Shown piece by piece: positions 2,734 through 64,000 of a stretch of DNA of 64,000 bases (positions within the stretch are counted from its first letter, which is position 1; every line of letters starts with the position of its first letter). The DNA comes from Clostridia bacterium (GTDB taxonomy: Bacteria > Bacillota > DSM-521 > Neomoorellales > SLTJ01): the NCBI GenBank assembly GCA_004347685.1, contig SLTJ01000032.1:118371-182370 (forward strand), given 5' to 3'. Position numbers and translations under genes: made by a program. Under the pieces are notes generated by a model. That model saw only the letters and a list, made by a program, of their open reading frames with translations. It searched no databases and had not been told where the DNA came from.

Positions 2734-3333
2734 GTGATCTGTTCTTTGGCGAAAAACGGGCAACGCGCTCTGCGGCAAGGTATGCTTACGGGACTGGGGG
2801 CTTTTTTTTTAGCCCTGGTGGTAAACTTCGGCTCCCAGGGCCTTCTCAGCAGCCTGACCTCTATCATTCTGTCTTTCCTGCTTTTGTTGGTTATTATCCT
2901 GGTGGGAATCATATTCGACGTCGTGGGCGTGGCGACCACCGCGGCCAAAGAAGCGCCTTTCCATGCCCGAGCGGCCCGCAAACAGGTGGGGGCCAGGCAG
3001 GCCATCCAGCTTATCCGCCACGCCGACCGGGTAGCCAGTTTTTGTAATGATGTGGTGGGGGATGTGGCTGGTACCCTGAGCGGGGCCGTGGGAGCAGTGA
3101 TGGTAACTCGCCTGGTCGCGGGGGGAATGCCGGCCCCGGAACTGTGGTTGAGCACGGTAATGATAGCCGGAGTGGCGGCCCTGACCATCGGGGGCAAGGC
3201 TTTCGCCAAGGGGTTTGCCATTCGCGAGGCCGAGGCCATTGTTTACCGGGTGGGCTATGTGCTGGCCCTGGTTGAGGTCCACCTGGGATTGAGGTTATGG
3301 CAGGATAACCACAAGAGGGGAAGAAAGACTTGA
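2734..3333 (+). CDS. oapA: OLE-associated membrane protein
   Basis: 199 aa with about 4 predicted TM helices ([10 protein letters not shown]..., [17 protein letters not shown]..., [14 protein letters not shown]..., [15 protein letters not shown]). Lies directly downstream of the OLE-like RNA. Confidence 0.7.
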
Positions 3334-12402: not shown

Positions 12403-12593
12403 TCCATCGGCCCCCCCTATTCTTGTCGCCCTAATTATACCTTTCCTGGCCGGAAAATCAAACCCTTTTTAGCATTGGATTTGCCAGATATATTTATACC
12501 CGGCCGCAGGTGGTGAGGGTGAGGTGGCTTCTGTTTGTCACCTGCCTGCATATAATTTAATGAAAGTCACTTACTCCTGGGGTGAGAAGACCT

Positions 12594-36715: not shown

Positions 36716-37066
36716 ATGTGGTTCAAGGACGCCGAGCACGAGCGGTCTTTCGCGGAACTGCGGGAGAAGGCCGGGGCCAGGCCCGGCGAGCGGGAGTACC
36801 TGGCGGCCCTCTACGTCCTGGCCGCCCTGGACAAGCCGGTGGCCAAATACGTCCAGCCCCGCCGGGTGGCCTTCACCGCGCTTTTTAAGGCCGCCGGGCC
36901 GTGGAGCAGCGGGGAAAAGGCCCTGGTCCGCCTGGCGGCCACCCTGTTCAACGGCGAGGCCTGGAAGGTGGCGGTGCACGACGTTTTCTCCTGCCTGGAC
37001 CCGGCCAACTGCCAGGCGGCCCTGGAGGCACTGAAGATCCGCTATCAGAAGACCGCGTTGTTTTAG
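36716..37066 (+). CDS. Hypothetical protein
   Basis: 116 aa. AAGGAGAGAAAGAAG precedes the ATG. No recognisable motif. Confidence 0.4.
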   Translation: MWFKDAEHERSFAELREKAGARPGEREYLAALYVLAALDKPVAKYVQPRRVAFTALFKAAGPWSSGEKALVRLAATLFNGEAWKVAVHDVFSCLDPANCQAALEALKIRYQKTALF

Positions 37067-37122
37067 GGAGAGGGGGCCCGCTAAGCGGGCCCTTGACGCC
37101 ACCCCGGAAAGGAGGCCTGGCC

Positions 37123-38490
37123 GTGCCGCTGGTGTTATTGTTTTTCCTGTCCCTGGTGGCCTACTGGTTACTCCTGCGCTGGCTTACCCGGCGGCGGGTG
37201 CTCACCCTGCCCCGCGCCCTGGCGACCGCCGCCATTCTGGCCTTGGCCCTACTGGACTTCTTTCTCACCGCGCCCCTCTTCCTTCTGCCCAAGACCGTCT
37301 GGCCGCCGCTGGCGCCGGCGATGACCTGGCCGGAGGTGGTGGCCTACCTGGCTTCCCCGGCCCCGGGCGGGGGCAACCAGTGGTGGCAGCTTACCCTGGA
37401 CCTTTTCCGCACCCGGCCGCCGGGCTTCTGGCTGGCGCAGGTACCTTTTCTCCTGGCGGCTTTCCCCCTGGTCCGGTGGGCGTGGCGGGCCGGCTGGCCG
37501 GCTGGCGAGCCCCGTGCCGCCCGCACGGCCACCCACGGCAGCAGCCGCTGGCGCGGCCGGGCCGAACTGAAGACCACCCTGCGGGCCGTAAACTGCGGCC
37601 GGCCGCAGGAAAGCGGCGTGGTGGTGGGAGGGGCGGGGAACAGGGCCTGGCTCACCCGGCCGGAGGTGGGCAACCCCCACGTCCTCCTCATCGGGGCCAC
37701 CCGGAGCGGCAAGAGCCGGCGGGTCATCCTGCCCACCGTCTGGGTGCTGGGCCGGGCTGGAGAGTCCATGATCCTCACCGACCCCAAGGGAGAACTCTAC
37801 GCCCACGCCGCCGGCTGGCTGCAAAGTCAGGGCTACCAGGTGGTGCTCCTGGATCTCCTCGCCCCGGGCCGGGGCAACCGCTGGAACCCCCTCGCCGCCG
37901 TAGCCCAGGCCTGGACCGCCGGCGAGGGCGAGGAGGCGGCGCGCCTGGCCTGGGAGATCGGCCACATCCTGGCCTATAGCGAGGGGCCGGGCACGGACCC
38001 CATCTGGCCCCAGGCAGAGGAATCCCTTATCGCCGCCCTCTGCCTGGCGGTGGCCGTGGAGGCCCCGCCGGAGGCGCGGCACATGGCTACAGCCTTTCGC
38101 CTGCTCACGGAACTGGGCCACGGGGGCGGGGAAGCCCTGGACGCTTGGTTCGCGGGGCTACCGCCGGACCACCCGGCGCGGCTGGCCTACGGCACGGCGG
38201 CTTTAAGCGAGAGCCGCACCCGCTCCAGCATCTACACCGGCACGGCGGCCCACTTGAGGCTCTGGGGGGACCCCGGGGTGGCCTGGCTGGGCGCCGCCTC
38301 CGACCACGACCCGGCCGCAGCGGGGTTAAAGCCCACGGCCGTCTTCCTCCTGATGCCGGACGAAGCCGGGGCGAGAAGGCCCATCGCCAGCCTCTACGTC
38401 AACCAGGCTTACGGCGCCCTGGCCCGGGTGGCCAGGGCCAACGGCGGAAAACTTCCCGTGCCGGTCTGGTTCCTTTTGGACGAGTTCGGC
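37123..38490 (+). CDS. Type IV coupling protein (VirD4/TraG family), exon 1
   Basis: Two N-terminal TM helices, Walker A IGATRSGKSRRVILP, ends ...VWFLLDEFG (Walker B) exactly at the intron 5' GTGCG. GGAAAGGAGG RBS before the GTG at 37123. Confidence 0.85.
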
Positions 38491-41007: not shown

Positions 41008-41583
41008 AACGTGGGGAAGCTCCCGGCCATGGCGGAAAAGCTCACCGTGGCCGCCGGCCGGAACATCCGCTTCCTCCTGGCGGTACAGTCCCTGGCCCAG
41101 GTGGCCCACGTCTACGGGGAAAAGGCGGCGGAAATCCTCCTCGGCAACTGCGACACCTGGCTCTACCTGCGGGCGGCCGACAACGAAACCGCCCGGGCCA
41201 TCAGCCAGAAGGCGGGGACGTACACGGTAAAGACGGTTTCCGTACAGCGACGGCCGGGCCTGGCCGCGGGCGGGACGGAAGGAGCGGCCGGCCGGCCGCT
41301 TTTGACGCCCGACGAGGTTTTGCGCTGGCCCGCCGGCCAGGCTTTACTCCTCCAGGCCGGTCAGTACCCGGCTCGCCTGCCTTTGCCAGACCTCTCCACT
41401 TGGCGGGAGGCCAACGCGGCCTTCGCCACCGCCCCGGCACCAGAAGGGCAGACCCCCCGCGCCGGGCCGGTCCCCACCTGGGTGCCCCGGCCGGAGTCCG
41501 GGATGGTTGTTTCTTCCGCCGGCCAGCGGCAGGCCGGGCGGGAAAGGGACGGCCAGGACATCTTCGGCCGCCGCGGGAGGTGA
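41008..41583 (+). CDS. Type IV coupling protein, exon 2
   Basis: NVGKLPAMAEKLTVAAGRNIRFLLAVQSLAQVAHVYGE...NCDTWLYLRAADNETA is the conserved VirD4/TraG C-terminal region, in frame with exon 1. Confidence 0.85.
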   Translation, partial: NVGKLPAMAEKLTVAAGRNIRFLLAVQSLAQVAHVYGEKAAEILLGNCDTWLYLRAADNETARAISQKAGTYTVKTVSVQRRPGLAAGGTEGAAGRPLLTPDEVLRWPAGQALLLQAGQYPARLPLPDLSTWREANAAFATAPAPEGQTPRAGPVPTWVPRPESGMVVSSAGQRQAGRERDGQDIFGRRGR

Positions 41584-41638
41584 GGACCAGGGAGCAATCC
41601 CCTTTTCGTGTTAACCTTTTCCGGGAGGAGGTGAACCC

Positions 41639-41878
41639 ATGCCCGCCTTCGTCAACCAACTGATCAGCTTTCTCCAGTCGGCCCTGACCTGGGTGGTGGC
41701 CCTGGCCATCCCGGCCACGGCCCTTACTGCCGGCTACCACGCCCTGATGCGGGCCACGGCCCAGGACGAGATGACGGCCCTGCAGCACTCCCGGGCGCTG
41801 AAAAACGCCCTCGTCTACGGCGTGGTGGTCATCCTGGCCGGCAGCATCACCAACGCTGTGCTGGGCGCTTTCCGCTAA
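41639..41878 (+). CDS. Small two-TM membrane protein (possible VirB2/TrbC-like or accessory T4SS component)
   Basis: 79 aa with two hydrophobic helices. Lies between the T4CP and VirB6-like genes. Confidence 0.4.
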   Translation: MPAFVNQLISFLQSALTWVVALAIPATALTAGYHALMRATAQDEMTALQHSRALKNALVYGVVVILAGSITNAVLGAFR

Positions 41879-41958: not shown

Positions 41959-42819
41959 ATGCTGGAAACCCTGCAGAACGCGGCCACCCAGATGCTGACC
42001 GCCTTCTTGCTCAACTACATCAGCGCCCTGCTGGCGCCCCTGGAGTGGGCGCTCAGGATGTTCGCCCAGGCGGGGGCGCTGCGGGACCTGACCTCCCAGC
42101 CCTGGGCGCAGAACCTCATCGCCGGGACGCAGGGCATCGCCGCCGCCCTCCTGGCCCTGCGGGTGGCCTGGGAGGCGCTGCAGATGGCCACACTCAGGGC
42201 GGAAGGGGCGCCCACGGACCCCGGGGCGCTCCTCAAGCGCACGGTGATGGCCGGGGCGGCCATCTTCACCGGCCCGTGGGTGGCCCGGCAGATGCTCGTC
42301 TTCGGCAACGCCCTGGCCGCCGCCGTGGCCCAGGCCGGCCTGGGCGTGGGCCTGGAGCAGTTGGACCTGGCTTCGCTCGTGGCCTACGCCGCAGACCCCT
42401 TTCGCCTGCTGGTGCTCCTTTTGCCGGCGGTGGTCCTGGGCTTACTCATCTTTTTCCAGGCCATGATCCGCACCGTGGAGATCACCCTGGCCGCCATCAT
42501 CTCGCCCCTGGCGGCCCTGGGGTATGTTTCCGGCGGCGGGATGGCCGATGTCTGGTGGCGGGAGGTGGTGGTTTTAAGCACCGCCCAGGCGGTGCAGATG
42601 CTCCTCCTCTACCTGGCCACCGTCTTTTTCGCCACGCCCACCCAGTGGGACAGCAGCCAGTTCACCCTGGGGCCCTTTCTCTTCGTGGCCACCCTCTGGG
42701 TGGCCTGGCGGACGCCGCACATCCTGCGCAACTACGCCTATTCCTCGGGGGTGAGCAGTGGTATGAGCAGCGTGGGCCAGGTGGCCATGTGGCGGGTGAT
42801 GGCCCGCCTGCCGTTTTAA
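41959..42819 (+). CDS. VirB6/TrbL-like polytopic T4SS membrane protein
   Basis: 286 aa with at least 6 TM helices. Positioned before the VirB3-like and VirB4 genes. Confidence 0.55.
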   Translation: MLETLQNAATQMLTAFLLNYISALLAPLEWALRMFAQAGALRDLTSQPWAQNLIAGTQGIAAALLALRVAWEALQMATLRAEGAPTDPGALLKRTVMAGAAIFTGPWVARQMLVFGNALAAAVAQAGLGVGLEQLDLASLVAYAADPFRLLVLLLPAVVLGLLIFFQAMIRTVEITLAAIISPLAALGYVSGGGMADVWWREVVVLSTAQAVQMLLLYLATVFFATPTQWDSSQFTLGPFLFVATLWVAWRTPHILRNYAYSSGVSSGMSSVGQVAMWRVMARLPF

Positions 42820-43152: not shown

Positions 43153-43820
43153 TGCCACAGGCATGGTCCAAGGTGCGACTCCAGAAACCCTCCGGCCGTA
43201 ACCCAGCGGCCGGGCCTGGGGAAAAGAACACGGTGCAGCAGTGGCTGCCCCTGCGGGACATTGCCGGAGGCTGCCTGGTGCTGGCCGGCGGGAGCGTGGT
43301 GGCCGTGGTGCGGGTGGAGCCATCACCCTTCACCCTCCTCTCCGCGGGGGAACGGGCCAGGAGGATCGCCGCCCTGCACGAGGCCATCCAGGCCCTGCCC
43401 GGCCCGGCCCAGGTCTGCGCCATCCCCCGCCCCATCGACCTGGACGCTTACCTGGCGGAACTGGAAGCGAGGCTGGCGGAAACAGACGGCAGCCGGCGGG
43501 CGGTCCTGCGCGGCTACGCGCGCTACGTGCGCGGCCTGGTGGCCGGCGCCGCGGCCATGGAACGGCGCTTTTACGTCCTCCTGCCGGGGGACGGCCGCAA
43601 GAAGGGCGGCCGGGAGGAAACCCTGCAGCGCGCCGGGGAGCTGGTGGCGGCCCTGGCCCGGGCGGACCTGGCGGCGCACCTATGCGGCGACCAGGAAATC
43701 CTGGACCTCTTGTTCTGCTTCTTCCACCCGGCCCAGGCGGCCTTGGAGCGGGCGGAGTTCCCGGCGGCGGCACCCCTTTACCTGACGGCTGGGGAGGTGG
43801 GCGACCATGGCCCTGCTTGA
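43152..43820 (+). CDS. VirB4-like conjugation ATPase, N-terminal piece
   Basis: VQQWLPLRDIAGGCLVLAGGSVVAVVRVEPSPFTLLSAGE matches the N-terminal domain of Firmicutes VirB4 (PrgJ/CD1110-type). Ends 14 nt after the next ORF's ATG. Confidence 0.7.
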   Translation: MPQAWSKVRLQKPSGRNPAAGPGEKNTVQQWLPLRDIAGGCLVLAGGSVVAVVRVEPSPFTLLSAGERARRIAALHEAIQALPGPAQVCAIPRPIDLDAYLAELEARLAETDGSRRAVLRGYARYVRGLVAGAAAMERRFYVLLPGDGRKKGGREETLQRAGELVAALARADLAAHLCGDQEILDLLFCFFHPAQAALERAEFPAAAPLYLTAGEVGDHGPA

Positions 43821-45546
43821 CCTCCTGGCGCCGCCGGCCCTGGGCTTCCAGCCCCGCCACCTGGTATTCGGCGACCAGGTGGCCCGGGTGCTGGCCGTCC
43901 TGGACTACCCGCCCCGGGTGGGGCAGGCCTGGCTGGCGCGGCTGGCCAACCTGCCCGGGGTGTCTTTAAGCCTGCACCTGGTCCCCACCGACCCGGTGGA
44001 CCTCCTCCAGGCCCTGAACAAGAGCGTGCAGGAGTATACCAGCCGCCTGGCGGCCGGGGGCAGCGCCCTGGCCCAGTCCCGCTGGCAGCAGTCCCTGGAG
44101 GAAGGATGCCAAACTGCTCCTGAAGAGGTGGACCAGGAGGCGCAGAAGGTCTACCGGGTGGCGGTGATCCTCCTGGTGCTGGCGCCGGACGAGGAGGAGT
44201 TGAACCGCCGCTCCCGGCAGGTGGAGGCGACCTGCGCCGCCGCCGGGATGCGGGCCCGGGCGGCCGTCTACCGCCAGGAGGATGGCCTCAAGGCGGCGGG
44301 GCCGTGGGGCCTCCTGCCGCCGGAGATGGCCGGCCTGGCGGCCCGGGAGATGCCGGCGGAAACCATCGCCGCCGCCTACCCCTGGGTGGCCGGGGGTTTG
44401 AACCACGGCCGGGGCGTGGTCTGGGGCCGGGATACAGGTGGCGGCCTGCTCCTGGCCGACCGCTGGCAGCCGCCGGAGGGCTCCGGCATCACCAACCCCA
44501 ACCTGAACATCCTGGGCACCTCTGGCGGCGGCAAGTCCTTCGCCGCCAAGGTCCTGCTCCTGCGGGAATACGCCCTGGGGGCGCGGGTGCTGGTCCTGGA
44601 CCCAGAGCGGGAGTACCGGGGCCTCTGTCGGGCTTTAGGGGGGAGCTGGGTGAACGCCGCCGGCGGCAGCGGCCGCATCAACCCCCTGCAGGTGCCGGAC
44701 ACGCCGGACGCCGACGAGGAGGACGAGGAGGCCGGGGGTACGGCGCGCGGGCCTTTAAGCGCCCACCTGCAGCGGGTGAAGACCTTTTTCCAGCTCTACC
44801 TGCCGGGCCTGGATGACCTGGAGCGGGCCGTCCTGGACGAGGCGGTGCTCGCCGCCTACCGGGAATACGGCGTGGACTGGCAGACCGACCCGGCTACCGT
44901 CAAGATTTGGCCCACGGTGGCCGATGTCTACCGCCACGTGCAAGGGGCGGGGGCGGAAAGGCTGGCCATCTTGCTCAAGGGTGCGGCGGAGGGCGCGGAG
45001 AGCGCCTTGTGGGCCGGCCAGACGAGCCTGCCGCCGGCGGGGGAGTTCACGGTGCTGGACATCCGGGAGCTGACGGATGCCAGCGATGCCGTGCGCCGGG
45101 CGCAGTACTTCAACATCCTGGGCTATGCCTGGGACCTGGTGCGGGAGGGGCAGGCCAGGCAAAGGCGCACCGTGCTGGTGGTGGACGAGGCCTGGCTGTT
45201 GGCCGATCCCCAGACCCCCCAGGCCATGGGCTTTTTACGCAACGTGGCCAAGCGCATCCGCAAGTACCTGGGGAGCCTGACCATCATCACCCAGAACGTG
45301 GTGGACTTCCTGAGCCCCGAGCTGGCCCGCCTGGGCGAGCCGGTCATCAACAACGCCAGCTTCAAGCTCTTGATGCGCCAGGAATCCCGCGACCTGGAGG
45401 CTTTGCGAGAACTCTTACGGCTTTCGGAGGCGGAGGTTGACCTCCTGGCCGGGGCCAGGCGGGGCGAAGGGCTCTTGCTGGCCGGCAACCAGCGGGTGCA
45501 CCTGCGGGTGGAGGCTGCGCCCCACGAACTGGAGGTGATCGGCTGA
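43807..45546 (+). CDS. VirB4-like conjugation ATPase, C-terminal piece
   Basis: Walker A ILGTSGGGKSFAAK, Walker B VLVVDEAWLL. GGAGGTG RBS 6 nt before the ATG. Confidence 0.85.
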   Translation: MALLDLLAPPALGFQPRHLVFGDQVARVLAVLDYPPRVGQAWLARLANLPGVSLSLHLVPTDPVDLLQALNKSVQEYTSRLAAGGSALAQSRWQQSLEEGCQTAPEEVDQEAQKVYRVAVILLVLAPDEEELNRRSRQVEATCAAAGMRARAAVYRQEDGLKAAGPWGLLPPEMAGLAAREMPAETIAAAYPWVAGGLNHGRGVVWGRDTGGGLLLADRWQPPEGSGITNPNLNILGTSGGGKSFAAKVLLLREYALGARVLVLDPEREYRGLCRALGGSWVNAAGGSGRINPLQVPDTPDADEEDEEAGGTARGPLSAHLQRVKTFFQLYLPGLDDLERAVLDEAVLAAYREYGVDWQTDPATVKIWPTVADVYRHVQGAGAERLAILLKGAAEGAESALWAGQTSLPPAGEFTVLDIRELTDASDAVRRAQYFNILGYAWDLVREGQARQRRTVLVVDEAWLLADPQTPQAMGFLRNVAKRIRKYLGSLTIITQNVVDFLSPELARLGEPVINNASFKLLMRQESRDLEALRELLRLSEAEVDLLAGARRGEGLLLAGNQRVHLRVEAAPHELEVIG

Positions 45547-51665: not shown

Positions 51666-52073
51666 ATGAGCGAAACCAGGGTAACCAAGAGACGGGTGGC
51701 GGTGATGGTGGACACGCCGGTTTTCGCCCGGCTGTGGGCCGAGGCCCAGGCCGAGGGAGTATCGGTGGCCGAGGTGGTAAGAAGGATCATTGACGAGCGC
51801 ATCCGGGGCGACTCCGCCCGCCTGGGTGTCCCGGTGGTGGAGGATGCCGTGCGGCGGGTCATGGAGCCCCATGTGGACCGGCTGGCGGGGATGCTGGCCC
51901 ACGCTGGCGTCGCCGCCGGCACTGCGGCCTGGCTGGCCCGGGCGCTGGTGAATCTCCTCACCCAGGTGGACCCCGACGAGGCCTGGGAGCAGGCGGTGGC
52001 CCGGGCCAAAACGGGTTTGCGCCGCAGCCTGAAGGCGGCGGAGGAGGACGAGGATGAAGAAGACCGGGACTAA
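51666..52073 (+). CDS. Ribbon-helix-helix relaxosome accessory protein (candidate)
   Basis: KRRVAVMVDTPVFARLWAEAQAEGVSVAEVVRRIIDE RHH pattern. Overlaps the relaxase start. Confidence 0.55.
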   Translation: MSETRVTKRRVAVMVDTPVFARLWAEAQAEGVSVAEVVRRIIDERIRGDSARLGVPVVEDAVRRVMEPHVDRLAGMLAHAGVAAGTAAWLARALVNLLTQVDPDEAWEQAVARAKTGLRRSLKAAEEDEDEEDRD

Positions 52074-53376
52074 GGCGCCACCCTTTTTGAAAATCAAGCA
52101 CAGCGAGCAGGCCCAAAAGGACGCCGCCCACGTCCGCTACATCGGTTCCCGCCCGGGGGTGGAAAAAGTCCTGGTGCAAGACGATCTGGCTGCCGACGCG
52201 GCGCACATCGAGTACGCCGGGGCGCGGCCCCGCAGCACCGGCCTGTTCGGGCCGGATCCTGAGCATCCGCCCCTTTTGGCCGCGGCTATGAAGGAAGTGG
52301 GCAACCGGTCCGGCGGCCCCTCCTGGCGGCTGGTCTTGAGCCTGCGGGAGGACGACGCCCGGGAGCTGGCGGTTAGCGGCCTGGCCGCCTGGCAGGACCT
52401 GACCAGGCGGTGCATGGCCCAGTTCGGCCAGGCCACGGGGATACGGCCGGAGCACCTGCGCTGGGTGGCCGCCCACCATCCCGAGCCCGGGCACCCCCAC
52501 GTGCACGTCATCGCCTGGCTGGCGGACGGCGCTCCCCGGCGGCGGGGCTTGCTCTCCAGCATGGAGCTGCGGGAAGTGCGCCGGGGAATGACCAGGGAGC
52601 TGTTTGGCCCCCTGCGCGCCCGCCTGGCGGCGGAGCGTACCCTGAACCGTAACACCATGCTGGACACCGTGCGCGAGGATGTGGCCCGGGCGGAGCGCCT
52701 CCTGCGGCGGGTGGAACTGGAGTTGCAGGCCCAGGAGCCGGTGGGCGAGAGGTTGCCGCCCCGCCTGGAAAGGGCGGACCTGGAGCTTCTCGCCCGCCAA
52801 CTGGAAGGCCTGGCGCAAAAGATGCCCGGGCACGGCCAGGCCAAGCTGGCCTACCTGCCGGCGGAGATCAAAGAGGAAGCCAGAGAGGTTGCCCGCTGGC
52901 TCCTGGAAAGGCCCCAGGTGGCCGGGGTGCTGGCCGGCTACGAAAAAGCCACCAGGGAACTGACCAGGCTCTATACCCGCCAGCCGGAGAAGGCTGAAGA
53001 AGCCTGGCGGAAGGCCTACGACGACCTGCGCGACCGGGTGGCCCAGGTGGTAGTCCGGTCGGCGGCGGAGCTGAACCGGACCTCCCGGCGGCCCGCTGCC
53101 ACTCAGGAGCGTAACGTGGAAGAGAGGCCAAAACCGCAGGTGCAGGACAGGGCGGAGCTGCCGGCGGGGGAAGCAGGCCGGACGCGGCAACCCCACTCAA
53201 GTAAGGGCATTGATTTAGCCCGCGTTACCTGGCGTTCCGCCTGGCGCACCCTGGAACGGGAGCGCCTGCGGGCCGAGGCCAGGGCGGAACTGGCCAGCCT
53301 GCGGGAGGTCGAGCGGGCCGAGGAACGGGCGCGGCGGGAGCGCGAGCGCCAGGGCGGGGGATTAGGAAGGTTATGA
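52054..53376 (+). CDS. Relaxase (MobL/MOBP-like)
   Basis: Repeated AHVRYIGSRPGVE / AHIEYAGARPRSTGLF motifs and the His cluster HHPEPGHPHVHV. Long helical C-terminus. Confidence 0.7.
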   Translation: MKKTGTKAPPFLKIKHSEQAQKDAAHVRYIGSRPGVEKVLVQDDLAADAAHIEYAGARPRSTGLFGPDPEHPPLLAAAMKEVGNRSGGPSWRLVLSLREDDARELAVSGLAAWQDLTRRCMAQFGQATGIRPEHLRWVAAHHPEPGHPHVHVIAWLADGAPRRRGLLSSMELREVRRGMTRELFGPLRARLAAERTLNRNTMLDTVREDVARAERLLRRVELELQAQEPVGERLPPRLERADLELLARQLEGLAQKMPGHGQAKLAYLPAEIKEEAREVARWLLERPQVAGVLAGYEKATRELTRLYTRQPEKAEEAWRKAYDDLRDRVAQVVVRSAAELNRTSRRPAATQERNVEERPKPQVQDRAELPAGEAGRTRQPHSSKGIDLARVTWRSAWRTLERERLRAEARAELASLREVERAEERARRERERQGGGLGRL

Positions 53377-54945: not shown

Positions 54946-55164
54946 GAGGAGGGGGGAGAGAAATCATGGGCACGTTACCTTTAATCCTTTGGGCCGGCCC
55001 TGGAAAAGCCCATAGTGATGATGAGGCCTTTTTGGGAGATTTTTGATGGAAACCAGCAGGAAAATCAAATAACGTGTCGAATAGCCATAACATGCTATTA
55101 ACCTTTTAGAGAAGGGCTGTATGATGAAAGGATTTCCAGGTACTAAAAGAACACTAGTTCAAAT

Positions 55165-55212
55165 GGGGGGGGGGGGGGGGTAATAATTGCTATAGATGTC
55201 ATTTAGTGGAAA
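55165..55212 (+). repeat. Poly-G tract (G16) + conserved 32-nt box, copy A
   Basis: G16 at 55165-55180, then TAATAATTGCTATAGATGTCATTTAGTGGAAA. Paralog at 59525-59569. Confidence 0.9.
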
Positions 55213-55332
55213 CAAATCCCCTCTACTTCCTCCTTCTCTTTTTTCTTCTTTTCCTTTGCCTCGCCCGAGGCAAAATCATTCTTTTCCTCCATAATTTCCC
55301 TAACACCAACAGCAAATTTACCTTCCCCGGGT

Positions 55333-55430
55333 ATCCTACGCTCAAGGCAAACCTGTCGAAAGGTAGGGACGCAGAGCCACGGGTTTTCGAGCCCCTTTTT
55401 CGGGGTATGATCGCCAGGCTGCTGCAGGAT
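55333..55430 (+). promoter_or_regulatory. c-di-GMP-I (GEMM-I) riboswitch #1
   Basis: ACGCUCAAGGCAAACCUGUCGAAAGGUAGGGACGCAGAGCCACGGGUU... matches the GEMM-I core (GGCAAACC..GAAAG..GGGACGCAAAGCC). P1 is ATCCT/AGGAT. Confidence 0.8.
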
Positions 55431-55739
55431 TCTTGCCTTTTAGCTGGTAGCTTTACCCGCTACCATGGGCAATAAGCTTTTGAAAGAAAGCTCCTGAAGG
55501 TAGCTTGCTTCAACCTGAGCGCATGGTTGGAAGTAGTCATCGAATGGCGGGCGGCCTTAAGCAACCCAGGCTTCTTATCTGTTGGGCGGTCCTATTTGTT
55601 GAGTGCATACCTGCCAGTGGATGCTACGCCCTACATCCCATAGGGGAAATGCCGAGCAGAGGTGGCAAGGCTAGTGACTGCCCATCACGAGTTCAGGAGA
55701 AAGCGCGCAGCGCTATTTGCTTGAAGGAGGAACAAAGAT

Positions 55740-55954: not shown

Positions 55955-56467
55955 GTGAGCAGTATGAAGAAGTGGGGGTTATTGGGCGCCTCCATAATCC
56001 TCGCTGCGGGCATGATGCTGTTCTTCTTCCAGGACAGCGAGGCGGGGGCAGCTACGGGAGGCGTCACCGCCCAGGCCAAAGTTAACCCCAACATCTCCGT
56101 GAGCGTCAGCCCCGCCAGCATAGTGCTTGAAGGGGTACCTGGTTCTACAGTTATCAGTACCAGCCCCGTAGTGGTCAACGTCAAGTCCAACGTGAACTAC
56201 AACTTGAGCGTCAAGGCGACCCAGGACCTAACGGATGCCAGTGTGAGCCCGGCCTTGACCCTCCCTATCAGCCGCTTGAGCTGGGCCCCGGCGGGAACAG
56301 GAACGTGGACGGCCTTTAGCCTGACGGACACAAGCATCGCTACCAATGAACCCAAGGCCGCTGGAACAGGGAAAGACTACAGTTTCGATTACCAGTTTGC
56401 CATTGACATCAATGACCCGGTAGGCACCTATTCCACGGATATTGTCTATACGGCCGTGGCCTACTAG
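55955..56467 (+). CDS. Secreted beta-rich protein (candidate surface/fibre subunit)
   Basis: Signal peptide MKKWGLLGASIILAAGMMLFFF...AGAA. Alternating beta-strand pattern with Ser/Thr/Val/Asn-rich composition, ends ...GTYSTDIVYTAVAY. Confidence 0.6.
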   Translation: MSSMKKWGLLGASIILAAGMMLFFFQDSEAGAATGGVTAQAKVNPNISVSVSPASIVLEGVPGSTVISTSPVVVNVKSNVNYNLSVKATQDLTDASVSPALTLPISRLSWAPAGTGTWTAFSLTDTSIATNEPKAAGTGKDYSFDYQFAIDINDPVGTYSTDIVYTAVAY

Positions 56468-56646
56468 TCCATGCAACTGGCGTACAGGGATTGCTATTCT
56501 GTCAGAGGGGCAAGCCGGGAAGCGAGGGGCAACAGTCCTGCAGCTAGTGGCTTGTGCTTCTCCGGCTTGCTTCCTTAGTCTGTCATTTGCTTGGCCGAAG
56601 GGTAACGCCTAGCTGATGTTACGGGTGGTGGGACGGAGGGCTGGCG

Positions 56647-58026
56647 TTGAAGAACCTGGAACGGAAAGCGCTTTTCTTTTTTCTCGGCTTATTTTTCGGG
56701 CTGCTGTTTACTCCAACGGCCTATGCGGAAGTAAGGCTGGGGCTTACGCCGGCCAAGGTAGAGTTGTCTTTGGCCGGAGGTGAAGGTGGCAGTGGAGAAA
56801 TAACCGTGGTCAACGAAGGCAGCGAGCCTTTGGAAGTAAGCTTCTACGTTCGTGACTATTACTTTGCCGACGACGGCAAGATCGTTTTTGCCGAGGGTCA
56901 GGAAAAAAGGTGGTCGGCCAGCAAGTGGCTTGAAGTGGGGCAAGTATCCGGCCGCATTTCCCCGGGCGCAAGTATCAGGCTTCCCTACCGGGTACGCGTG
57001 CCACTAGGTGCCGAGCCCGGCAGCCACTGGGCGGTCATCTTCGCCGAAGGCAGGGCGATAGGGAACAATACGCGCACCTCGCCCCTGGGGGTCCGGGTGG
57101 GGGCAGTGGTGCTGATCACTGTTCCCGGCGACGTGATTGCCAAGGGAGAAATACTCGACTTCCGCGTCCCTGCAGTTGGCTATAAGAAGGTTCCCGTCAC
57201 CTTCAAGTTCCGCAACAGCGGCAATGTCCATATCAACCTGCGCCCCCAGCTAGAGGTGTTCCACAAGGGTCAGGTTATTAACCGGACGCAGTTGGACGAG
57301 GTTGTTTCTTACCCGCAAACCGTCCGCGAGGTAAAGGGCTACCTGCAGCTTGGGAATATCTGGGGACTGCACGAGGCCGTGCTGAAAATCGAACAGGAGG
57401 GGGGTACTATGGTTTACCGGGCTCCATTTCTTTTGCTTCCCTGGCCGTGGATCCTGGGTGGCCTTCTTCTTCTCGCTTATCTTTTGGCCTGGCTTATCAT
57501 ACGCAGGAGAAGGAAACAGGCCAGCCCGAGACTTGACGAATACCCGGCTCCCGGCGAACTGGCCGTGGGGAGAGAAGCGGCTGCGGTCCGCCAAGCCCTG
57601 GGCATAAGCGCGGCCCTCCCGTTGCCAGCGCAGCGGCCTTCCTCCCGGTCCAGCCGGGCTGATTTTACCAAGACACTCAATATCTTGACGGAAACCGTCG
57701 AACAGCTACGGCAGGAAAACGCCCTGCTAAGGCGCAATCTGGAAGACCTCTCTAGCCAGGCGAGCAGCGAACGCTGGGAAAAGGTGGTGGCAGAAAGCCT
57801 CATTGACGCCCAGACGGAAATTGAAAACGTCCGGGCTAAAGCCGCGGCCAGCATAGAGAGGGCCAACCGTGAGGCCCACAAGCAGATGGCCGAGATCGAA
57901 AACCGGTTTAGAGAAAAGTTCAAGGTATTGCTCAATGATTACAAGGCCACGCTCTCGGACGTAGAGAGGTTTTTGGGCAGGCTTGGTAGTGCGGGAGGAG
58001 CAGTAGATGAGGGCGGAGACAGTTAA
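56647..58026 (+). CDS. Membrane protein: Ig-like ectodomains + TM + DivIVA-like coiled-coil tail
   Basis: Signal peptide. Beta-sandwich-like ectodomain (GEITVVNEGSEPLEVSFYV...). TM segment LLLPWPWILGGLLLLAYLLAWLII + RRRRK. Cytoplasmic coiled coil (VEQLRQENALLRRNLEDL...). Confidence 0.6.
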   Translation: MKNLERKALFFFLGLFFGLLFTPTAYAEVRLGLTPAKVELSLAGGEGGSGEITVVNEGSEPLEVSFYVRDYYFADDGKIVFAEGQEKRWSASKWLEVGQVSGRISPGASIRLPYRVRVPLGAEPGSHWAVIFAEGRAIGNNTRTSPLGVRVGAVVLITVPGDVIAKGEILDFRVPAVGYKKVPVTFKFRNSGNVHINLRPQLEVFHKGQVINRTQLDEVVSYPQTVREVKGYLQLGNIWGLHEAVLKIEQEGGTMVYRAPFLLLPWPWILGGLLLLAYLLAWLIIRRRRKQASPRLDEYPAPGELAVGREAAAVRQALGISAALPLPAQRPSSRSSRADFTKTLNILTETVEQLRQENALLRRNLEDLSSQASSERWEKVVAESLIDAQTEIENVRAKAAASIERANREAHKQMAEIENRFREKFKVLLNDYKATLSDVERFLGRLGSAGGAVDEGGDS

Positions 58027-58483
58027 TCCTTTCATTGAAGAGATGGTGAAGGTTTTCCAAGAGGAACTGGCCATAACCTGCCAAAAGAAAAGCGTTTCCC
58101 TCCAGCATGTCCCAGTAACCTGGCATGAGGTAAACGTGCTTATAGACATCAGGGGTGCGGCGGAAGCGGCGGTTATCTACAGTATGGAGGAAGATACGGC
58201 CTGTGCCCTGGCAGGGGCCTTTCATAAAGATAAGTCCTTCCAGGGCTACTGCTACGAAGTAGAAGATTCGGTCAAGGAGTTATTTAACATTGTCAGCGGG
58301 CAAGCCCTGAAAATACTGGAGAATAAAGGTTTAGCCTGTACCCTGCCGGGACCGCCGTCCGTCATTATAGGGCGCCTGCGCGCCGTCCCTGTAGTACGCC
58401 GCCCCCTGTTAGTGGTAATCTTGGATACGCCTGTTGGCTTGGTCCGGGTGAGCGTGTCAATGGTGGATAAGGCTGGCCGATAA
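58007..58483 (+). CDS. CheX/CheC-like domain protein
   Basis: VNPFIEEMVKVFQEEL...VNVLIDIRGAAEAAVIYSMEEDTACALAGAF...ELFNIVSGQA follows the CheX pattern. Confidence 0.65.
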   Translation: MRAETVNPFIEEMVKVFQEELAITCQKKSVSLQHVPVTWHEVNVLIDIRGAAEAAVIYSMEEDTACALAGAFHKDKSFQGYCYEVEDSVKELFNIVSGQALKILENKGLACTLPGPPSVIIGRLRAVPVVRRPLLVVILDTPVGLVRVSVSMVDKAGR

Positions 58484-58554
58484 ACTGTTTTCCTTCGCAC
58501 TTTCTGCTTACCCCCATGATCGTGGCACAATAGTAATCATTTAGGAAGGGGATC

Positions 58555-59178
58555 GTGTTGTCGAGCGTTAGTGCCTACGTGGAGGCCGATGAGAAGGAGC
58601 CACCGGTACATAGCGGAACGCCGGTAGATTTTGAAGCCATTTATTCTCATTACCTTAACCTGCTATACTGGATGACACACCGTTTCTGCAGTCCTGGATC
58701 ACCGGACTTTGAAGATTACCTTCAGGAAGCCGCTATTGCTCTGTGGGAAGCAACGCAGAGCTATGATCCCCATAAAGGTAACGCCAATGCCTTCATAGCT
58801 AACTGCGTGCGGTGCAGGCTAATAAACTATTTGAAGGCCGAGAGGCGCCGGCAGCCCACCATCTCCCTTGATGCCCAGCCGGACGATGCCAACGGACTAT
58901 ATGAAAGGTTAGGCCTTCCCAGCGCCAACGTGGAGGCCATAGTTATCGGGAGAGAAGAACGGAAAAACCTAATTGACAGCCTTACCCAACTAGAAAGGAA
59001 TTGTGCCCTTTTATTTGCCTGGGGTTTCTCCTACGATGAAGTAGCCAGGGTTTTGGGCATAACCACGAAATCCGTGGATAATGCCTTGCGTCGGGTACGG
59101 CTAAAGGGATGCCGCGCCTTTACTCCTCTAAATAAATTCCGGGGAGGGAGAAAGGATAAACTGGAGGCGAGTGTTTGA
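58555..59178 (+). CDS. Sigma-70-family (ECF-like) RNA polymerase sigma factor
   Basis: Region 2 (DYLQEAAIALWEATQSYDPHKGNANAFIANCVRCRLINYLK) and region 4 HTH (FSYDEVARVLGITTKSVDNALRRVRLK). Confidence 0.75.
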   Translation: MLSSVSAYVEADEKEPPVHSGTPVDFEAIYSHYLNLLYWMTHRFCSPGSPDFEDYLQEAAIALWEATQSYDPHKGNANAFIANCVRCRLINYLKAERRRQPTISLDAQPDDANGLYERLGLPSANVEAIVIGREERKNLIDSLTQLERNCALLFAWGFSYDEVARVLGITTKSVDNALRRVRLKGCRAFTPLNKFRGGRKDKLEASV

Positions 59179-59362
59179 CGCCCTGGAGGCGTATGACCGC
59201 TTGTTACAGGAAAACCGGGTAGTTGAGGCCCTCGAAATTCTTTACCAGGAGGCCGGAGCAGATAAGGTCACTGACGATGATTGGCGGGTAGCCCTGGCCC
59301 GTTTCCGTACCGTCTATGGCCGACCTCCCCTCTTCCCTGGGGAGCAAGACGGCGGCGAGTGA
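59171..59362 (+). CDS. Small hypothetical protein
   Basis: 63 aa. Start overlaps the sigma gene stop (possible anti-sigma or accessory protein, with no direct evidence). Confidence 0.3.
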   Translation: MFDALEAYDRLLQENRVVEALEILYQEAGADKVTDDDWRVALARFRTVYGRPPLFPGEQDGGE

Positions 59363-59524
59363 AATAACTCTTCCTTAAAACCAGGTTAGTCAACCTTTTC
59401 CCCTGGGTCTCGATAGCTTTTGGCAGGAGATTGGAATAAAATGTCGAAGAAACAAATTAAGCCATTAGAAAGGACTGGACACAGTGGCAAGGCCTGTCGA
59501 AAAGATGAACAATTGTTCAATTAT

Positions 59525-59569
59525 GGGGGGGGGGGGGTAACAATTGCTATAGATGCCATTTAGTGGAAA
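59525..59569 (+). repeat. Poly-G tract (G13) + conserved 32-nt box, copy B
   Basis: G13 at 59525-59537, then TAACAATTGCTATAGATGCCATTTAGTGGAAA (30 of 32 identical to copy A). Confidence 0.9.
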
Positions 59570-59679
59570 TATGTCTCTGCTGCTTTTTTCTCCCTCTCTG
59601 TGGCTTTGCCCGGTGTGGAAATACTCCTGCCCGCTGTCGTTCCCCTGACATTTTAACTGCAACTTCACTTTCTCCCAAT

Positions 59680-59775
59680 ATCCTACGCTCAAGGCAAACC
59701 TGTCGAAAGGCAGGGACGCAAAGCCATGGGTCTAAAGCCCCTTTTGGGGGTATGATCGCCAGGCTGCCGCAGGAT
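59680..59775 (+). promoter_or_regulatory. c-di-GMP-I (GEMM-I) riboswitch #2
   Basis: ACGCUCAAGGCAAACCUGUCGAAAGGCAGGGACGCAAAGCCAUGGGUCUAAAGCC... is a near-textbook match to the Vc2-type aptamer. Confidence 0.88.
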
Positions 59776-59791
59776 TGTTTCTGTTTGTATC

Positions 59792-59814
59792 GGCAGCTCA
59801 AGCTGCCATTTTTT
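59792..59814 (+). terminator. Expression-platform terminator of riboswitch #2
   Basis: GGCAGC-TCAA-GCTGCC + ATTTTTT. GCTGCC is also part of the aptamer 3' P1 region, allowing mutually exclusive folds. Confidence 0.65.
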
Positions 59815-59833
59815 GTTAAGAGGGAGTAAGAAG

Positions 59834-60562
59834 GTGGTAGATCTGTCAGCAGGTTTGTCAGGGGTTGAAAACCTTCGGACATTTATCGGGGCCATGCAGG
59901 AGTACGACCCCACATTACTTAGCCATAGCTTGGGGGTAACTAATATCGCTTGGCAGTTGGCTTCTTACCTAAAAGTGGAAAATGGCTTTCAAGTTCTGCT
60001 GCAGGGCGCCCTTCTCCATGATATAGGCAAGACCTTAATTGACCGGGCCATTTTACAAAAGCCTGGCCCGCTAAGCCCAGCGGAGCAAGAGATCATGAAG
60101 CGTCATCCAGTGGACGGCGCGCAAATGCTGGCCGAAAAAGGCTTTAGCAAGGAACTCCAGGTGGTAGTGCTCTATCACCACGAGCGTTGGGACGGCAAGG
60201 GTTACCTGGGCCTAGCCGGGAATGACATGCCGCTTAATGCTCAAATTGTTGCCCTGGCTGACGCCATAGACGCCATGTCCAGTGACCGCCCGTACCGGGA
60301 GGCTCTTCCGCCGCTCGCGGTTTACGATGAGATTGAGAAAGGTGCTGGCAGCCAGTTTTCTTCTGAATTGGTTGGCCGTCTTGCTCAGGCAGGCTTTTGG
60401 CCCACAGATGGTTTGGGGAAAGAAAGGGTGCTGCATCTCATTAATCGGGAGCGCCAGTGGCTCAATTTCTTGGCGGAGCAGTTTCACAGTCTGCGGCACC
60501 CCCTGGTCCAAATACAAAACAGGAGGCTGGATAAGTTGGTAACGGCATACTATGGGGAATAG
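59834..60562 (+). CDS. HD-GYP-type c-di-GMP phosphodiesterase (GYL variant)
   Basis: HSLGV...LLHDIGK...HHERWDGKGYLGL...ALADAIDAMSSDRPYR. GAGGGAG RBS before the GTG at 59834 (track start 59813 lies inside the terminator). Confidence 0.8.
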   Translation: MVDLSAGLSGVENLRTFIGAMQEYDPTLLSHSLGVTNIAWQLASYLKVENGFQVLLQGALLHDIGKTLIDRAILQKPGPLSPAEQEIMKRHPVDGAQMLAEKGFSKELQVVVLYHHERWDGKGYLGLAGNDMPLNAQIVALADAIDAMSSDRPYREALPPLAVYDEIEKGAGSQFSSELVGRLAQAGFWPTDGLGKERVLHLINRERQWLNFLAEQFHSLRHPLVQIQNRRLDKLVTAYYGE

Positions 60563-60883: not shown

Positions 60884-60978
60884 CAGCGCTAAGGGTAAAC
60901 TTACCAAAAGGTGAGGACGCAGAGCCATAGGGTCTAAGGTGCTGGTGTGATGGCACTACGACAGCCTGGCCGCCGCTG
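60884..60978 (+). promoter_or_regulatory. c-di-GMP-I (GEMM-I) riboswitch #3
   Basis: CAGCGCUAAGGGUAAACUUACCAAAAGGUGAGGACGCAGAGCCAUAGGGUCUAAGG... P1 is CAGCG/CGCTG. More divergent than #1 and #2. Confidence 0.7.
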
Positions 60979-60989
60979 TAGGACGGTCT

Positions 60990-61019
60990 GACCTGCCCTT
61001 TCTCGCGGCAGGTCTTTTT
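60990..61019 (+). terminator. Expression-platform terminator of riboswitch #3
   Basis: GACCTGCC-(9 nt)-GGCAGGTC + TTTTT. Confidence 0.7.
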
Positions 61020-61124
61020 GTCTCTAGAAGGGCTGTTCTGTATTGCCGATAAACAGTGTCGGGGTTGGCGATAAAACTTCGGCGCTTCGCTCGGCGGCTT
61101 CCCCAAAAAGGAGGGCGGTGAGCC

Positions 61125-61370
61125 ATGCAGCGGAAGCCAAAACTGCGGGAATTGATCGTTAGAGTTAAAAACGGTGAGGAGGACGCCGTCCTTGAAGTGG
61201 TGCAGCGGTTCATTCCACTGGTCAGGAAGTACAGCCGTCGCATGGGCTATGACGAAGCCTGTTCCGACCTGGTCGTCTGGATTGTAAGCGCGGTCCACAG
61301 GTATGAACCGCGTACCACCTGGGGCCGGGACGAACTCCAGAAATATTTCGCGAGCAAACGGCATGACTAG
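61125..61370 (+). CDS. Small HTH protein (Tn916 orf8 / HTH_16-like)
   Basis: LRELIVRVKNGEEDAVLEVVQRFIPLVRKYSRR resembles the small conjugative-transposon HTH/sigma region-2-like proteins. AAAGGAGGG RBS. Confidence 0.55.
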   Translation: MQRKPKLRELIVRVKNGEEDAVLEVVQRFIPLVRKYSRRMGYDEACSDLVVWIVSAVHRYEPRTTWGRDELQKYFASKRHD

Positions 61371-61514: not shown

Positions 61515-61904
61515 GTGGTGGCCTGGTTCGTGACCGGCCTACGCCATGAAGCGCTCCGGTTGGCCAGGAAACACAGGCGACTGAAAGAGCGTGAGTTGCT
61601 CATCCTAAACGAACAATTGAAGAACGAGGCGGGAGGTGAGGCCATAGCCAGAATGCTCAGTACCGTTAACCCACCGCCGGACCTCCTTACCGAATTAGAG
61701 AACAAGCTGGTCCTCCAGGAAGCCCTCGCGTTGCTCACGCCGCTGCAGCAGAGGGTGGTCGTGGCAACGGTCCTGGAGGGTGTAACGGAACAAGAATTAG
61801 CCGGGGAAATGGGGGTGACCAAGCAGGCGGTAAACCGGATCAAAGAACGGGCTCTGGACAAGTTGCGAAAATATTTTGTCCTGGACAAGCCTCCCAGCAA
61901 GTAG
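61515..61904 (+). CDS. Small sigma-70 region-4 protein (Tn916 orf7-like)
   Basis: LTPLQQRVVVATVLEGVTEQELAGEMGVTKQAVNRIKERALDKLRKYF region 4 HTH. The start is ambiguous: the strong RBS+ATG at 61466 is in the -1 frame relative to this ORF and stops after 5 codons. Confidence 0.6.
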   Translation: MVAWFVTGLRHEALRLARKHRRLKERELLILNEQLKNEAGGEAIARMLSTVNPPPDLLTELENKLVLQEALALLTPLQQRVVVATVLEGVTEQELAGEMGVTKQAVNRIKERALDKLRKYFVLDKPPSK

Positions 61905-62853: not shown

Positions 62854-62986
62854 AGAGGCGGCAACTATAGCATTGGTTCTTCATATTATTACAGGTTTTA
62901 AGCGCGAGCTTTATAGTCAGGAAGAGACCACCATCGAGGTGGTTCTTTAAGCAAACGGTAATTGAACTAATGAGTATACAATCATT

Positions 62987-64000
62987 GAAATAATCGTAGC
63001 CCACACCAATGAGGCCGAGTACCGGGCCTTTATAAGCAACCCCAAAAACGAGGCCCTGCGCTCCCGCATCATCGTCATCCCGGTGCCCTACAACCTGAAG
63101 GTGAGCCAGGAAGTAAAGATCTACGAGAAGCTCATCCGCGAGGCGGATATTGACGTGCACGTGGCTCCTTACGCCCTGTGGACGGCAGCCATTTTTTCCG
63201 TGCTGACGCGCCTCAAGGAATCCAAGAAGCAGGGCATGGACTTGCTGAAGAAAATGAAGCTGTACGACGGCGAGGACGTAGAGGGGTTCAAGCAGAAGGA
63301 CGTGGCCGAGCTGCAGGCCGAGGCCGAAGGAGAGGGCATGAGCGGAATAGATCCTCGTTACGTGATAAACCGCATCTCCAGCGCCCTGATTACCAAGGAT
63401 ACGAAATGCATAAACGCCCTGGACATTCTGCGCGCCTTAAAGGATGGGCTGGACCAGCATCCCTCCATAACCAGGGAGGACCGGGAGAAATATTTTAACC
63501 TCCTGGCCTTGGCCCGCCAAGAGTACGACGAGGTGGCCAAGAAGGAAGTGCAGCGGGCCTTTGTTTACTCCTATGAGGAATCGGCCCGGACCTTGTTTGA
63601 GAATTACCTGGACAACGTGGAGGCCTTCTGCAATGGGGTGAAGGTCAAGGACCCCATCAGCGGCGAGGAACTGGAGCCGGACGAGAAACTCATGCGCTCC
63701 ATTGAGGAACAGATCGGGGTGGCGGAAAGCGCCAAGAAGGCTTTCCGCGAGGAAATCCTCATCCGCCTTTCTACCTATGCCCGCAAGGGCAAGCGTTTTG
63801 AGTACAGCTCACACGAACGGCTGCGCGAGGCCATTGAAAAAAAGCTATTTAGCGACCTGAAGGACGTGGTAAAAATAACCACTTCCAGCAAGACTCCCGA
63901 CCCCGAGCAGCTCAAGCGTCTCAATGCCGTGGTGGACCGGCTGGTATCCAGCCACGGGTATTGCCCTGTCTGTGCCAACGAACTTCTGAAATACACCGGA
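62987..64000 (+). CDS. prkA: PrkA serine protein kinase, 3' segment (continues beyond window)
   Basis: E-IIVAHTNEAEYRAFISNPKNEALRSRIIVIPVPYNLKVSQEVKIYEKLI... is open to the last base of the window. Absent from the ORF track because it has no stop codon in the window. Confidence 0.9.

Follow-up and report, generated by a model that had tools for sequence, protein, structure and literature searches.

What kind of circuit results when the gene for a putative cyclic di-GMP (c-di-GMP) phosphodiesterase lies behind a riboswitch that reads c-di-GMP itself? This question is raised by a leader and gene at positions 59680-60562 of a 64,000-nucleotide (nt) stretch of DNA from a Clostridia bacterium (contig SLTJ01000032.1 of assembly GCA_004347685.1), which we call the window and whose numbering we use throughout. 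Our computational analysis indicates that a class-I c-di-GMP riboswitch with a termination-based OFF platform probably controls a monocistronic gene for a small HD-GYP-family phosphodiesterase that lacks a sensor domain. This cassette is carried by a conjugative element, and it is a conserved unit in uncultured Clostridia.

A scan of the whole window with cmscan against Rfam 15 revealed a full-length c-di-GMP-I-type aptamer at 59684-59772 on the plus strand (73.3 bits, E = 1.8e-15, with the E-value scaled to 64 kb and 4227 families; the gathering score of the matching family, RF03167 of clan CL00126, is 59). The match spans positions 1-80 of the 80-position model and was recovered again in a separate scan of a 300-nt slice; a chance or decayed aptamer was rejected on the basis of the E-value and the full-length match. 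Based on the Rfam alignment and a pairing table, the aptamer contains P1, P1a with a GAAA tetraloop (59705-59708), and P1b with a receptor-like CUAAAG...UAUGA, which surrounds the distal P1b hairpin and fits the tetraloop-receptor consensus guCUAAgg...cuAuGac expected for a GNRA tetraloop/receptor contact. The aptamer is followed, after a gap of 19 nt and with no shared base, by an intrinsic terminator on the same strand, GGCAGC-UCAA-GCUGCC-AUUUUUUG (59792-59815; stem 59792-59797/59802-59807, loop UCAA, then an A and U6 at 59809-59814), which was also reported by an independent terminator scan. Next come a Shine-Dalgarno-like GAGGGAG read from the sequence (59820-59826, plus strand) and, 7 nt after it, a GTG at 59834 that opens a stand-alone HD-GYP-family open reading frame (ORF) of 242 amino acids (aa) (59834-60562, plus strand). 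The list of ORFs opens this frame at a TTG within the U tract, but the GTG is the likely start, and database protein P0001 ('MAG: Clostridia bacterium', a metagenome-assembled genome) is 100% identical to the window protein with the same GTG start. The sole indexed copy of the window gene is a 1.3-kb unitig.

The initial annotation, made from the sequence alone, had read this locus as the second of several c-di-GMP riboswitches, with a GEMM-I aptamer, a terminator whose 3' arm sequence recurs in the aptamer, and an HD-GYP-type gene carried by an integrative and conjugative element (ICE). These claims stood up. The covariance-model match is accompanied by canonical ligand-contact bases, two more c-di-GMP-I aptamers were found in the same whole-window scan at 55336-55426 and 60884-60977 (60.1 bits each), the terminator is where it was said to be, and its 3' arm hexamer GCUGCC is also present at 59764-59769, within the aptamer 3' strand. 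Likewise, the downstream ORF matches Pfam HD_5 (E = 2.7e-23) and HD (E = 1.2e-22) with all seven metal ligands intact, and the element could be delimited to 13463-62991, inside prkA.

The cassette recurs in other loci. Including the window, a c-di-GMP-I aptamer lies directly upstream of the gene in six of the eight distinct loci whose HD-GYP gene lacks the proline of the GYP motif (hereafter, Pro-less). The other five are L001 (protein P0002, 58% identical to the window protein; aptamer 66.9 bits, cut by the contig end), L003 (P0003, 56%; 48.2 bits, also cut by the contig end), L089 (P0005, 66%; 69.7 bits), L091 (P0008, 40%; 88.9 bits), and L072, from a low-G+C Clostridia metagenome-assembled genome (36%; 88.4 bits); L088 and L077 are without one. 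A scan of representative genomes in GTDB with the clade alignment yielded one new clade member with a riboswitch (L072) and one without (L077), and otherwise generic HD-GYP genes at no more than 50% identity, which served as the control set, while a single-protein scan of JGI metagenome contigs gave just three relatives at 40% identity. Among about 75 ordinary GYP-type loci, a pattern scan confirmed no such aptamer upstream of the gene; the single pattern match, in L025, was unsupported by Rfam on that strand. Three size-matched stand-alone GYP controls have other neighbors, two of them following a separate receiver-domain gene (gap of 12-31 nt) and one following fur. The pairing of the riboswitch with the Pro-less gene is conserved, and specifically so. 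In two of these loci (L001, 863-3167; L091, 1108-2657), the orthologous HD-GY(L) gene and the HATPase_c_2 kinase-like gene downstream of it overlap, and a STAS gene comes next; L001 additionally has a SpoIIE/PP2C phosphatase after the STAS gene, the whole being a partner-switching module.

Several features of the protein are consistent with an HD-GYP phosphodiesterase. In a search of PDB sequences it matched V-cGAP3, PA4781, PmGH, DvhD, and Bd1817, with E-values of 1e-22 to 5e-20 for the first three, and its best NCBIfam match, a model for an HD-GYP-type response-regulator phosphodiesterase, scored far under its cut-off, as a match to the domain alone would. AlphaFold2, given an alignment of 44 sequences, produced a confident model (mean predicted local distance difference test, pLDDT, of 94; predicted template modeling score, pTM, of 0.91), and its best Foldseek matches in the PDB were PA4781, PmGH, DvhD, and Bd1817 (E = 7e-10 to 1e-5). 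In an alignment to PmGH, the protein has each of the seven metal ligands common to HD-GYP proteins (H31, H62, D63, H91, H115, H116, and D143), corresponding to H189, H221, D222, H250, H276, H277, and D305 in the PmGH study (PMC4159591). D25 and K66 are the equivalents of the essential PmGH residues D183 and K225, and Y124 is the substrate-contacting tyrosine of the GYP motif, the roles of the metal, catalytic Asp/Lys, and Tyr residues being those described for PmGH (PMC4159591). The basic pair R152-P-Y-R155 forms an RxxR motif of the c-di-GMP type; RxxK/R recognizes c-di-GMP, whereas RxxQ/N occurs in enzymes selective for cyclic GMP-AMP (cGAMP) (bioRxiv 600031). The strict signature HHExx(D/N)GxGYP is incomplete, as the motif HHERWDGKGYLGL at aa 115-127 reads HHERWDGKGY-L, with His-His-Glu, Asp-Gly, Gly, and Tyr present and Pro deleted. 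The initial annotation had noticed this GYL sequence correctly but took it for a variant of the motif; it is instead a one-residue proline deletion conserved across the riboswitch-linked clade, common to P0001-P0004, P0006, P0008, and the L072 protein. In contrast, 37 of the 38 other aligned homologues keep GYP, and the remaining one, P0044, has GYV without a deletion. In PmGH, the P286A substitution left activity largely intact, with no substantial reduction (PMC4159591), so departure from the strict motif does not exclude function. We therefore read the protein as a small, sensor-less, and probably active member of the HD-GYP phosphodiesterase family, judging from its sequence.

The leader offers a candidate mechanism for coupling this gene to c-di-GMP. 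Within the aptamer 3' strand, GGCUGCCG (59762-59769, plus strand) makes up the bottom of P1b, two pocket nucleotides, and the first P1 pairs, and it can also serve as the 5' half of an antiterminator whose 3' half, CGGCAGCU (59791-59798, plus strand), overlaps the terminator 5' arm. In unconstrained minimum free energy (MFE) folds of 115- and 120-nt nascent transcripts, this 8-bp antiterminator (59762-59769/59791-59798) forms and the lower part of P1b opens; in the tail alone, the antiterminator fold reaches -18.3 kcal/mol compared to -11.2 kcal/mol for the terminator hairpin. The terminator hairpin appears once the canonical aptamer pairs are enforced in the fold. A nearest-neighbor model, in which neither ligand nor tertiary contacts count, puts the antiterminator state at -44.3 kcal/mol and the exact aptamer fold at -27.2 kcal/mol for the 115-nt transcript, and puts them at -48.0 and -36.0 kcal/mol, respectively, for the 132-nt transcript. 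Because the antiterminator is favored energetically, the energy of ligand binding and tertiary contacts would be needed for termination. With a non-overlapping downstream terminator, and with one strand common to the antiterminator and the ligand-stabilized part of the aptamer, the layout appears to be that of a standard OFF riboswitch, with read-through by default and termination upon ligand binding. The initial annotation had called the folds of terminator and aptamer mutually exclusive; folding supports exclusivity between aptamer and antiterminator, but not between aptamer and terminator, which can coexist.

The same arrangement can be traced in related leaders. In L089, L091, L001, and L003, the 5' arm of a separate terminator is complementary to the aptamer 3' strand, and the paralogous leader of riboswitch #1 in the window (the aptamer at 55336-55426) shows matched changes in the three strands (GCUGCU/GGUAGC/GCUACC). 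The region upstream of aptamer #2 (59500-59683, plus strand) is paralogous to that of riboswitch #1 (55150-55335) and includes a G13 tract at 59525-59537; the promoter presumably lies within it. Homopolymer G runs of at least 9 nt occur only twice in the window, as G16 at 55165-55180 and as this G13, at equivalent spots about 150-170 nt upstream of riboswitches #1 and #2 in these highly similar leaders, and both are followed by TAAnAATTGCTATAGATGnCATTTAGTGGAAA. The tracts could mark a slippage-prone promoter region. A promoter with its -35 and -10 elements spaced by the poly-G tract was rejected, as the spacer would be 29 nt.

A number of observations weigh against an OFF-regulated c-di-GMP hydrolase. 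On the RNA side, the unconstrained MFE fold of 125-132-nt transcripts (-48.3 kcal/mol) already holds the terminator together with most of P1b, the terminator stem is just 6 bp, and a promoter scan found no sigma-70-like match on the plus strand upstream of aptamer #2. On the protein side, the equivalent of PmGH E185, the eighth metal ligand within the E/D-T-G motif, is T27 in the sequence 'DPTLLSH'. This eighth ligand marks the trinuclear subgroup of HD-GYP proteins, and those without it are putatively binuclear, including Bd1817, which is inactive and lacks the GYP tyrosine (PMC4159591); with T27, the protein belongs to this second group. The structure nearest to the model, that of PA4781, is called bi-metallic in its PDB entry. 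Moreover, PmGH P286A is a substitution, and a deletion of the proline, as found here, may differ in its consequence. Finally, it is counter-intuitive for a degrader to be repressed by its own substrate, and the main role of the protein may not be bulk c-di-GMP turnover.

These points lead to the alternative that survives best, namely that the protein is not mainly a bulk c-di-GMP hydrolase. It could be a second-step enzyme that prefers pGpG, or a c-di-GMP-binding trigger or receptor with C-terminal helices that contact sigma/anti-sigma partners. The bi-metallic assignment of PA4781, the replacement of the E185 equivalent, and the deleted proline are all compatible with this idea, as is the presence among the top folds of DvhD, whose HD-GYP domain was solved with c-di-GMP bound and is treated in a paper on c-di-GMP receptor regulation. 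The confidently modeled C-terminal extension (aa 195-241) is specific to the clade and conserved within it, consisting of two long helices (195-217 and 223-241). The partner-switching genes that the orthologs in L001 and L091 overlap, and the sigma-factor-like proteins encoded by neighboring units in the window, would supply partners of a fitting kind, and OFF control by a supposed substrate is easier to rationalize for a signaling protein than for a degrader. On the other hand, the seven metal ligands, the catalytic D/K pair, the Tyr, and the RxxR are invariant or nearly so, and a receptor with no catalytic role at all would not be expected to keep them so well. We consider a primary role of this kind unlikely, although it is the main rival, and we continue to favor a phosphodiesterase that hydrolyzes c-di-GMP.

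A second alternative reverses the sign of the switch: c-di-GMP would turn the gene ON, so that the degrader is induced at high c-di-GMP and the loop becomes a negative-feedback homeostat. Such control is what one would intuitively expect for an enzyme that degrades c-di-GMP. Since the terminator is already present in the full-length MFE fold, the decision must be kinetic, and thermodynamic folding alone leaves the sign of the switch unfixed. An ON switch nevertheless fits the layout poorly. The terminator hairpin (59792-59807) lies 19 nt past the aptamer and shares no nucleotide with it, so that a bound aptamer cannot block it; the only strong competitor for the terminator 5' arm is the aptamer 3' strand, which the ligand sequesters; and the same OFF layout is found in the four homologous leaders named above. 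Many GEMM terminators do overlap P2, which would give ON switches (Weinberg et al. 2007, PMC1950547). Overall, ON control of this gene is improbable, and an OFF switch is the reading that we retain.

The identity of the ligand deserved closer scrutiny, as the top-scoring Rfam family for aptamer #2 is RF03167 (c-di-GMP-I-GGC) and not RF01051, whose overlapping match had a lower score and was filtered out by clan competition. Where the printed consensus sequences of the two families diverge most clearly in the conserved core, RF03167 reads GACGCGAAg and RF01051 reads GACGCAAAg. The window reads GACGCAAAG in this core. The A at the variable position of GACGC[G/A]AAG (59720, plus strand) falls in a column where RF03167 has a G and the match line is blank; it departs from RF03167 there and agrees with RF01051. 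According to the covariance-model alignment and an index table, two further plus-strand positions are informative: G59693, directly 5' of the G-C/C-G pairs that close P1a, and C59767, the second base of the unpaired 'GC' between P1b and P1. We take G59693, A59720, and C59767 to be the equivalents of G20, A47, and C92 of Vc2, the canonical c-di-GMP pocket bases in the Vc2 structures, and we assume, from comparing the two printed consensus sequences, that 'GGC' denotes the three pocket bases. In Vc2, C92 pairs with one guanine of the ligand, and an A instead of a G at position 20 marks the cGAMP riboswitches (GEMM-Ib).

By these marks, aptamer #2 has neither the G at the A47 position that distinguishes the RF03167 variant (consensus GACGCGAAG) nor the A at the G20 position of GEMM-Ib. 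The aptamer of L025 (4957-5034, minus strand) is also canonical-looking, carries the same GACGCAAAG, and is likewise best on RF03167; a G+C-rich P1 and a short distal P1b evidently raise the score on that model as well. Since RF03167 outscores RF01051 on at least these two aptamers with the canonical A, a top match to RF03167 is by itself no evidence for the variant class. The homologous leaders of L001, L003, L072, L089, and L091 all score best on RF01051 (48-89 bits). The idea that aptamer #2 is a specificity variant, of the c-di-GMP-I-GGC class or the cGAMP type, and not a c-di-GMP sensor therefore has the 73.3-bit RF03167 match in its favor and A59720, G59693, the behavior of L025, and the homologous leaders against it, and is highly improbable. 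With the canonical base in the diagnostic column, aptamer #2 is read as an ordinary class-I (GEMM-I) sensor that would bind c-di-GMP.

Taken together, an OFF switch of ordinary ligand specificity suggests the following circuit. With no ligand present, GGCUGCCG (59762-59769) would be captured by CGGCAGCU (59791-59798), consuming the terminator 5' arm and allowing polymerase to read into the gene. With c-di-GMP bound, 59762-59769 would be locked in P1b, the ligand pocket, and P1, such that GGCAGC could pair with the downstream GCUGCC and transcription would stop at U6 (59809-59815). Low c-di-GMP would then lead to synthesis of the enzyme, which would keep c-di-GMP low, and a rise of c-di-GMP beyond the switch threshold would shut the degrader off. 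The combination of OFF logic and c-di-GMP hydrolysis amounts to positive feedback that would tend to lock the low-c-di-GMP state, and we infer that the circuit behaves as a double-negative (positive-feedback) latch and not as a homeostat. The initial annotation had suggested that the enzyme could reset or sharpen the signal sensed by the other riboswitches; the predicted sign fits 'sharpen' and not 'reset'. In such a circuit, the riboswitch would plausibly stand in for the missing N-terminal sensor domain.

The cassette is part of a larger mobile element. The element is 49.5 kb long (13463-62991), is inserted in prkA, and is flanked by TGAAAT at both junctions (13457-13462 and 62986-62991). 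A PrkA AAA-domain ORF ends abruptly at about 13462, and the remainder of prkA continues in frame from 62992. Joining 12582-13462 to 62992-64000 gave an uninterrupted 630-aa ORF that matches AAA_PrkA over positions 2-356 of 358 (433.5 bits, where the N-terminal part by itself scored 311.1 bits) and the PrkA C-terminal domain over 1-255 of 255. This reconstituted ORF, together with the repeated TGAAAT, places the element borders at about 13463 and 62991, with the HD-GYP gene 2.4 kb inside the right end. Within these borders lie a large serine recombinase (15431-17020, minus strand), a MobL relaxase (52054-53373), a type-IV coupling protein (36901-38508), and a VirB4/TraG-like ATPase (43807-45543), the gene set that identifies an ICE, along with TrbL (41959-42816), Tad/Flp-type pilus genes (20153-24677; RcpC/CpaB-like, ParA/TadZ-like, T2SSE ATPase, and T2SSF), an M23 peptidase, and a ParM-like actin. 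In Bacillus, prkA is associated with sporulation. With its large serine recombinase, the element is similar to the 'intervening elements' that interrupt sporulation genes, and it differs from them by its full conjugation module.

The other two riboswitches of the element precede units that contain regulators, so that, besides the HD-GYP cassette, two further transcription units are set behind c-di-GMP riboswitches. In the same nascent-transcript folding, riboswitch #1 (55336-55480) showed a hairpin GGUAGC...GCUACC without a U tract after it, and riboswitch #3 (60884-61030) showed a strong terminator, GACCUGCC...GGCAGGUC-U5, but no convincing antiterminator. The first sizeable ORF after riboswitch #1 is about 500 nt away. 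The unit downstream of it (55955-59362) encodes 170-aa and 459-aa proteins with hydrophobic N-termini, the latter with a DivIVA-like coiled coil, a CheX-like protein, a complete sigma factor of the sigma-70/extracytoplasmic function (ECF) type (58555-59178), and a 63-aa protein. Downstream of riboswitch #3, an 81-aa HTH_16 protein (61125-61370) and a 129-aa protein with sigma-70 region 4 only (61515-61904) point to the right end of the element; from their domain content, these two small ORFs look like a split or two-piece sigma-factor-like regulator.

A broader scenario connects these units to the cassette. In the Pro-less, sensor-less clade, the riboswitch would be the sole regulatory input, and the protein would be either a latch with two stable states or a trigger enzyme linked to sigma/anti-sigma partner switching. 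The latch would commit the host to low c-di-GMP, under which the riboswitch-gated sigma units of the element would be expressed, and activation of the element, by excision or transfer, would be gated by host c-di-GMP. We offer this scenario tentatively and consider it rather doubtful in its entirety.

Other features of the window bear on the element or its host. The element encodes a surface protein of 1724 aa with PKD/Ig repeats (29185-34359). A group II intron lies directly after the coupling-protein ORF, with a reverse transcriptase/maturase/HNH ORF at 39079-40893 and an Rfam Intron_gpII match at 40911-41007; the intron may interrupt the coupling-protein gene, and the ORF that follows it (40908-41660) had no Pfam match. 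In the host part of the contig, an ornate large extremophilic (OLE) RNA (2132-2731, 511.6 bits) is followed by an ORF for a CNNM-like small membrane protein (2734-3333) and by dxs (3330-5279).

If both the OFF logic and the enzyme activity are true, a second messenger would repress its own degrader through RNA alone, which predicts bistability of c-di-GMP. The cassette also suggests how a stand-alone HD-GYP protein could do without a protein sensor domain, by taking its input from a riboswitch, and it provides a testable case of a mobile element that would both read and rewrite the c-di-GMP state of its host. It leaves knowledge of the riboswitch class itself unchanged. The circuit is clean, conserved, and directly testable. 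A literature search on ICEs, c-di-GMP, and riboswitches found nothing on point. Three aspects appear to be new: the Pro-less stand-alone clade with its tight riboswitch linkage, the predicted positive-feedback sign, and the location on a conjugative element whose two other c-di-GMP riboswitches precede units that contain regulators. To our knowledge, Weinberg et al. 2007 described neither a Pro-deleted stand-alone clade of about 240 aa with a C-terminal helical extension, nor its near-exclusive riboswitch linkage, nor its presence on a conjugative element.

The pairing itself was already known, since the association of GEMM with HD-GYP genes was published in 2007: HD-GYP and GGDEF are among the gene families listed there as following GEMM more than once (Weinberg et al. 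2007, PMC1950547), and the window likewise has a c-di-GMP-I aptamer 5' of an HD-GYP gene. Compared with the representatives of RF01051, such as Vc2 of Vibrio cholerae and Cd1 upstream of flgB in Clostridioides difficile, aptamer #2 has the same two-hairpin architecture, GNRA tetraloop/receptor, and three ligand-contact bases. It differs in scoring slightly better on RF03167 without having the variant base of that model, and in preceding a gene for a putative c-di-GMP-metabolizing enzyme, whereas theirs are genes for motility, adhesion, or competence. Class-I c-di-GMP riboswitches of C. difficile down-regulate transcription (PMC9286219), and the window switch likewise appears to be a transcription-termination OFF switch. 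The protein shares its fold and the HD...H...HHExxDGxGY...D pattern with the solved structures of PmGH (4MCW), PA4781 (4R8Z), V-cGAP3 (5Z7C), Bd1817 (3TM8), and DvhD (9RBZ), but it lacks an N-terminal sensor (GAF, REC, DUF3391, or PAS), has T in place of PmGH E185, and has lost the Pro. Stand-alone HD-GYP proteins are described as rare, as most carry N-terminal sensor domains (Galperin and Chou, bioRxiv 2021.11.05.467447). The VSP-2 island of V. cholerae, which includes a c-di-GMP phosphodiesterase (PMC12607878), is likewise a horizontally acquired element that provides its host with such an enzyme. The window differs in that the putative enzyme itself lies under a c-di-GMP riboswitch and is carried by a Firmicute-type conjugative element that has a large serine recombinase and is inserted in prkA.

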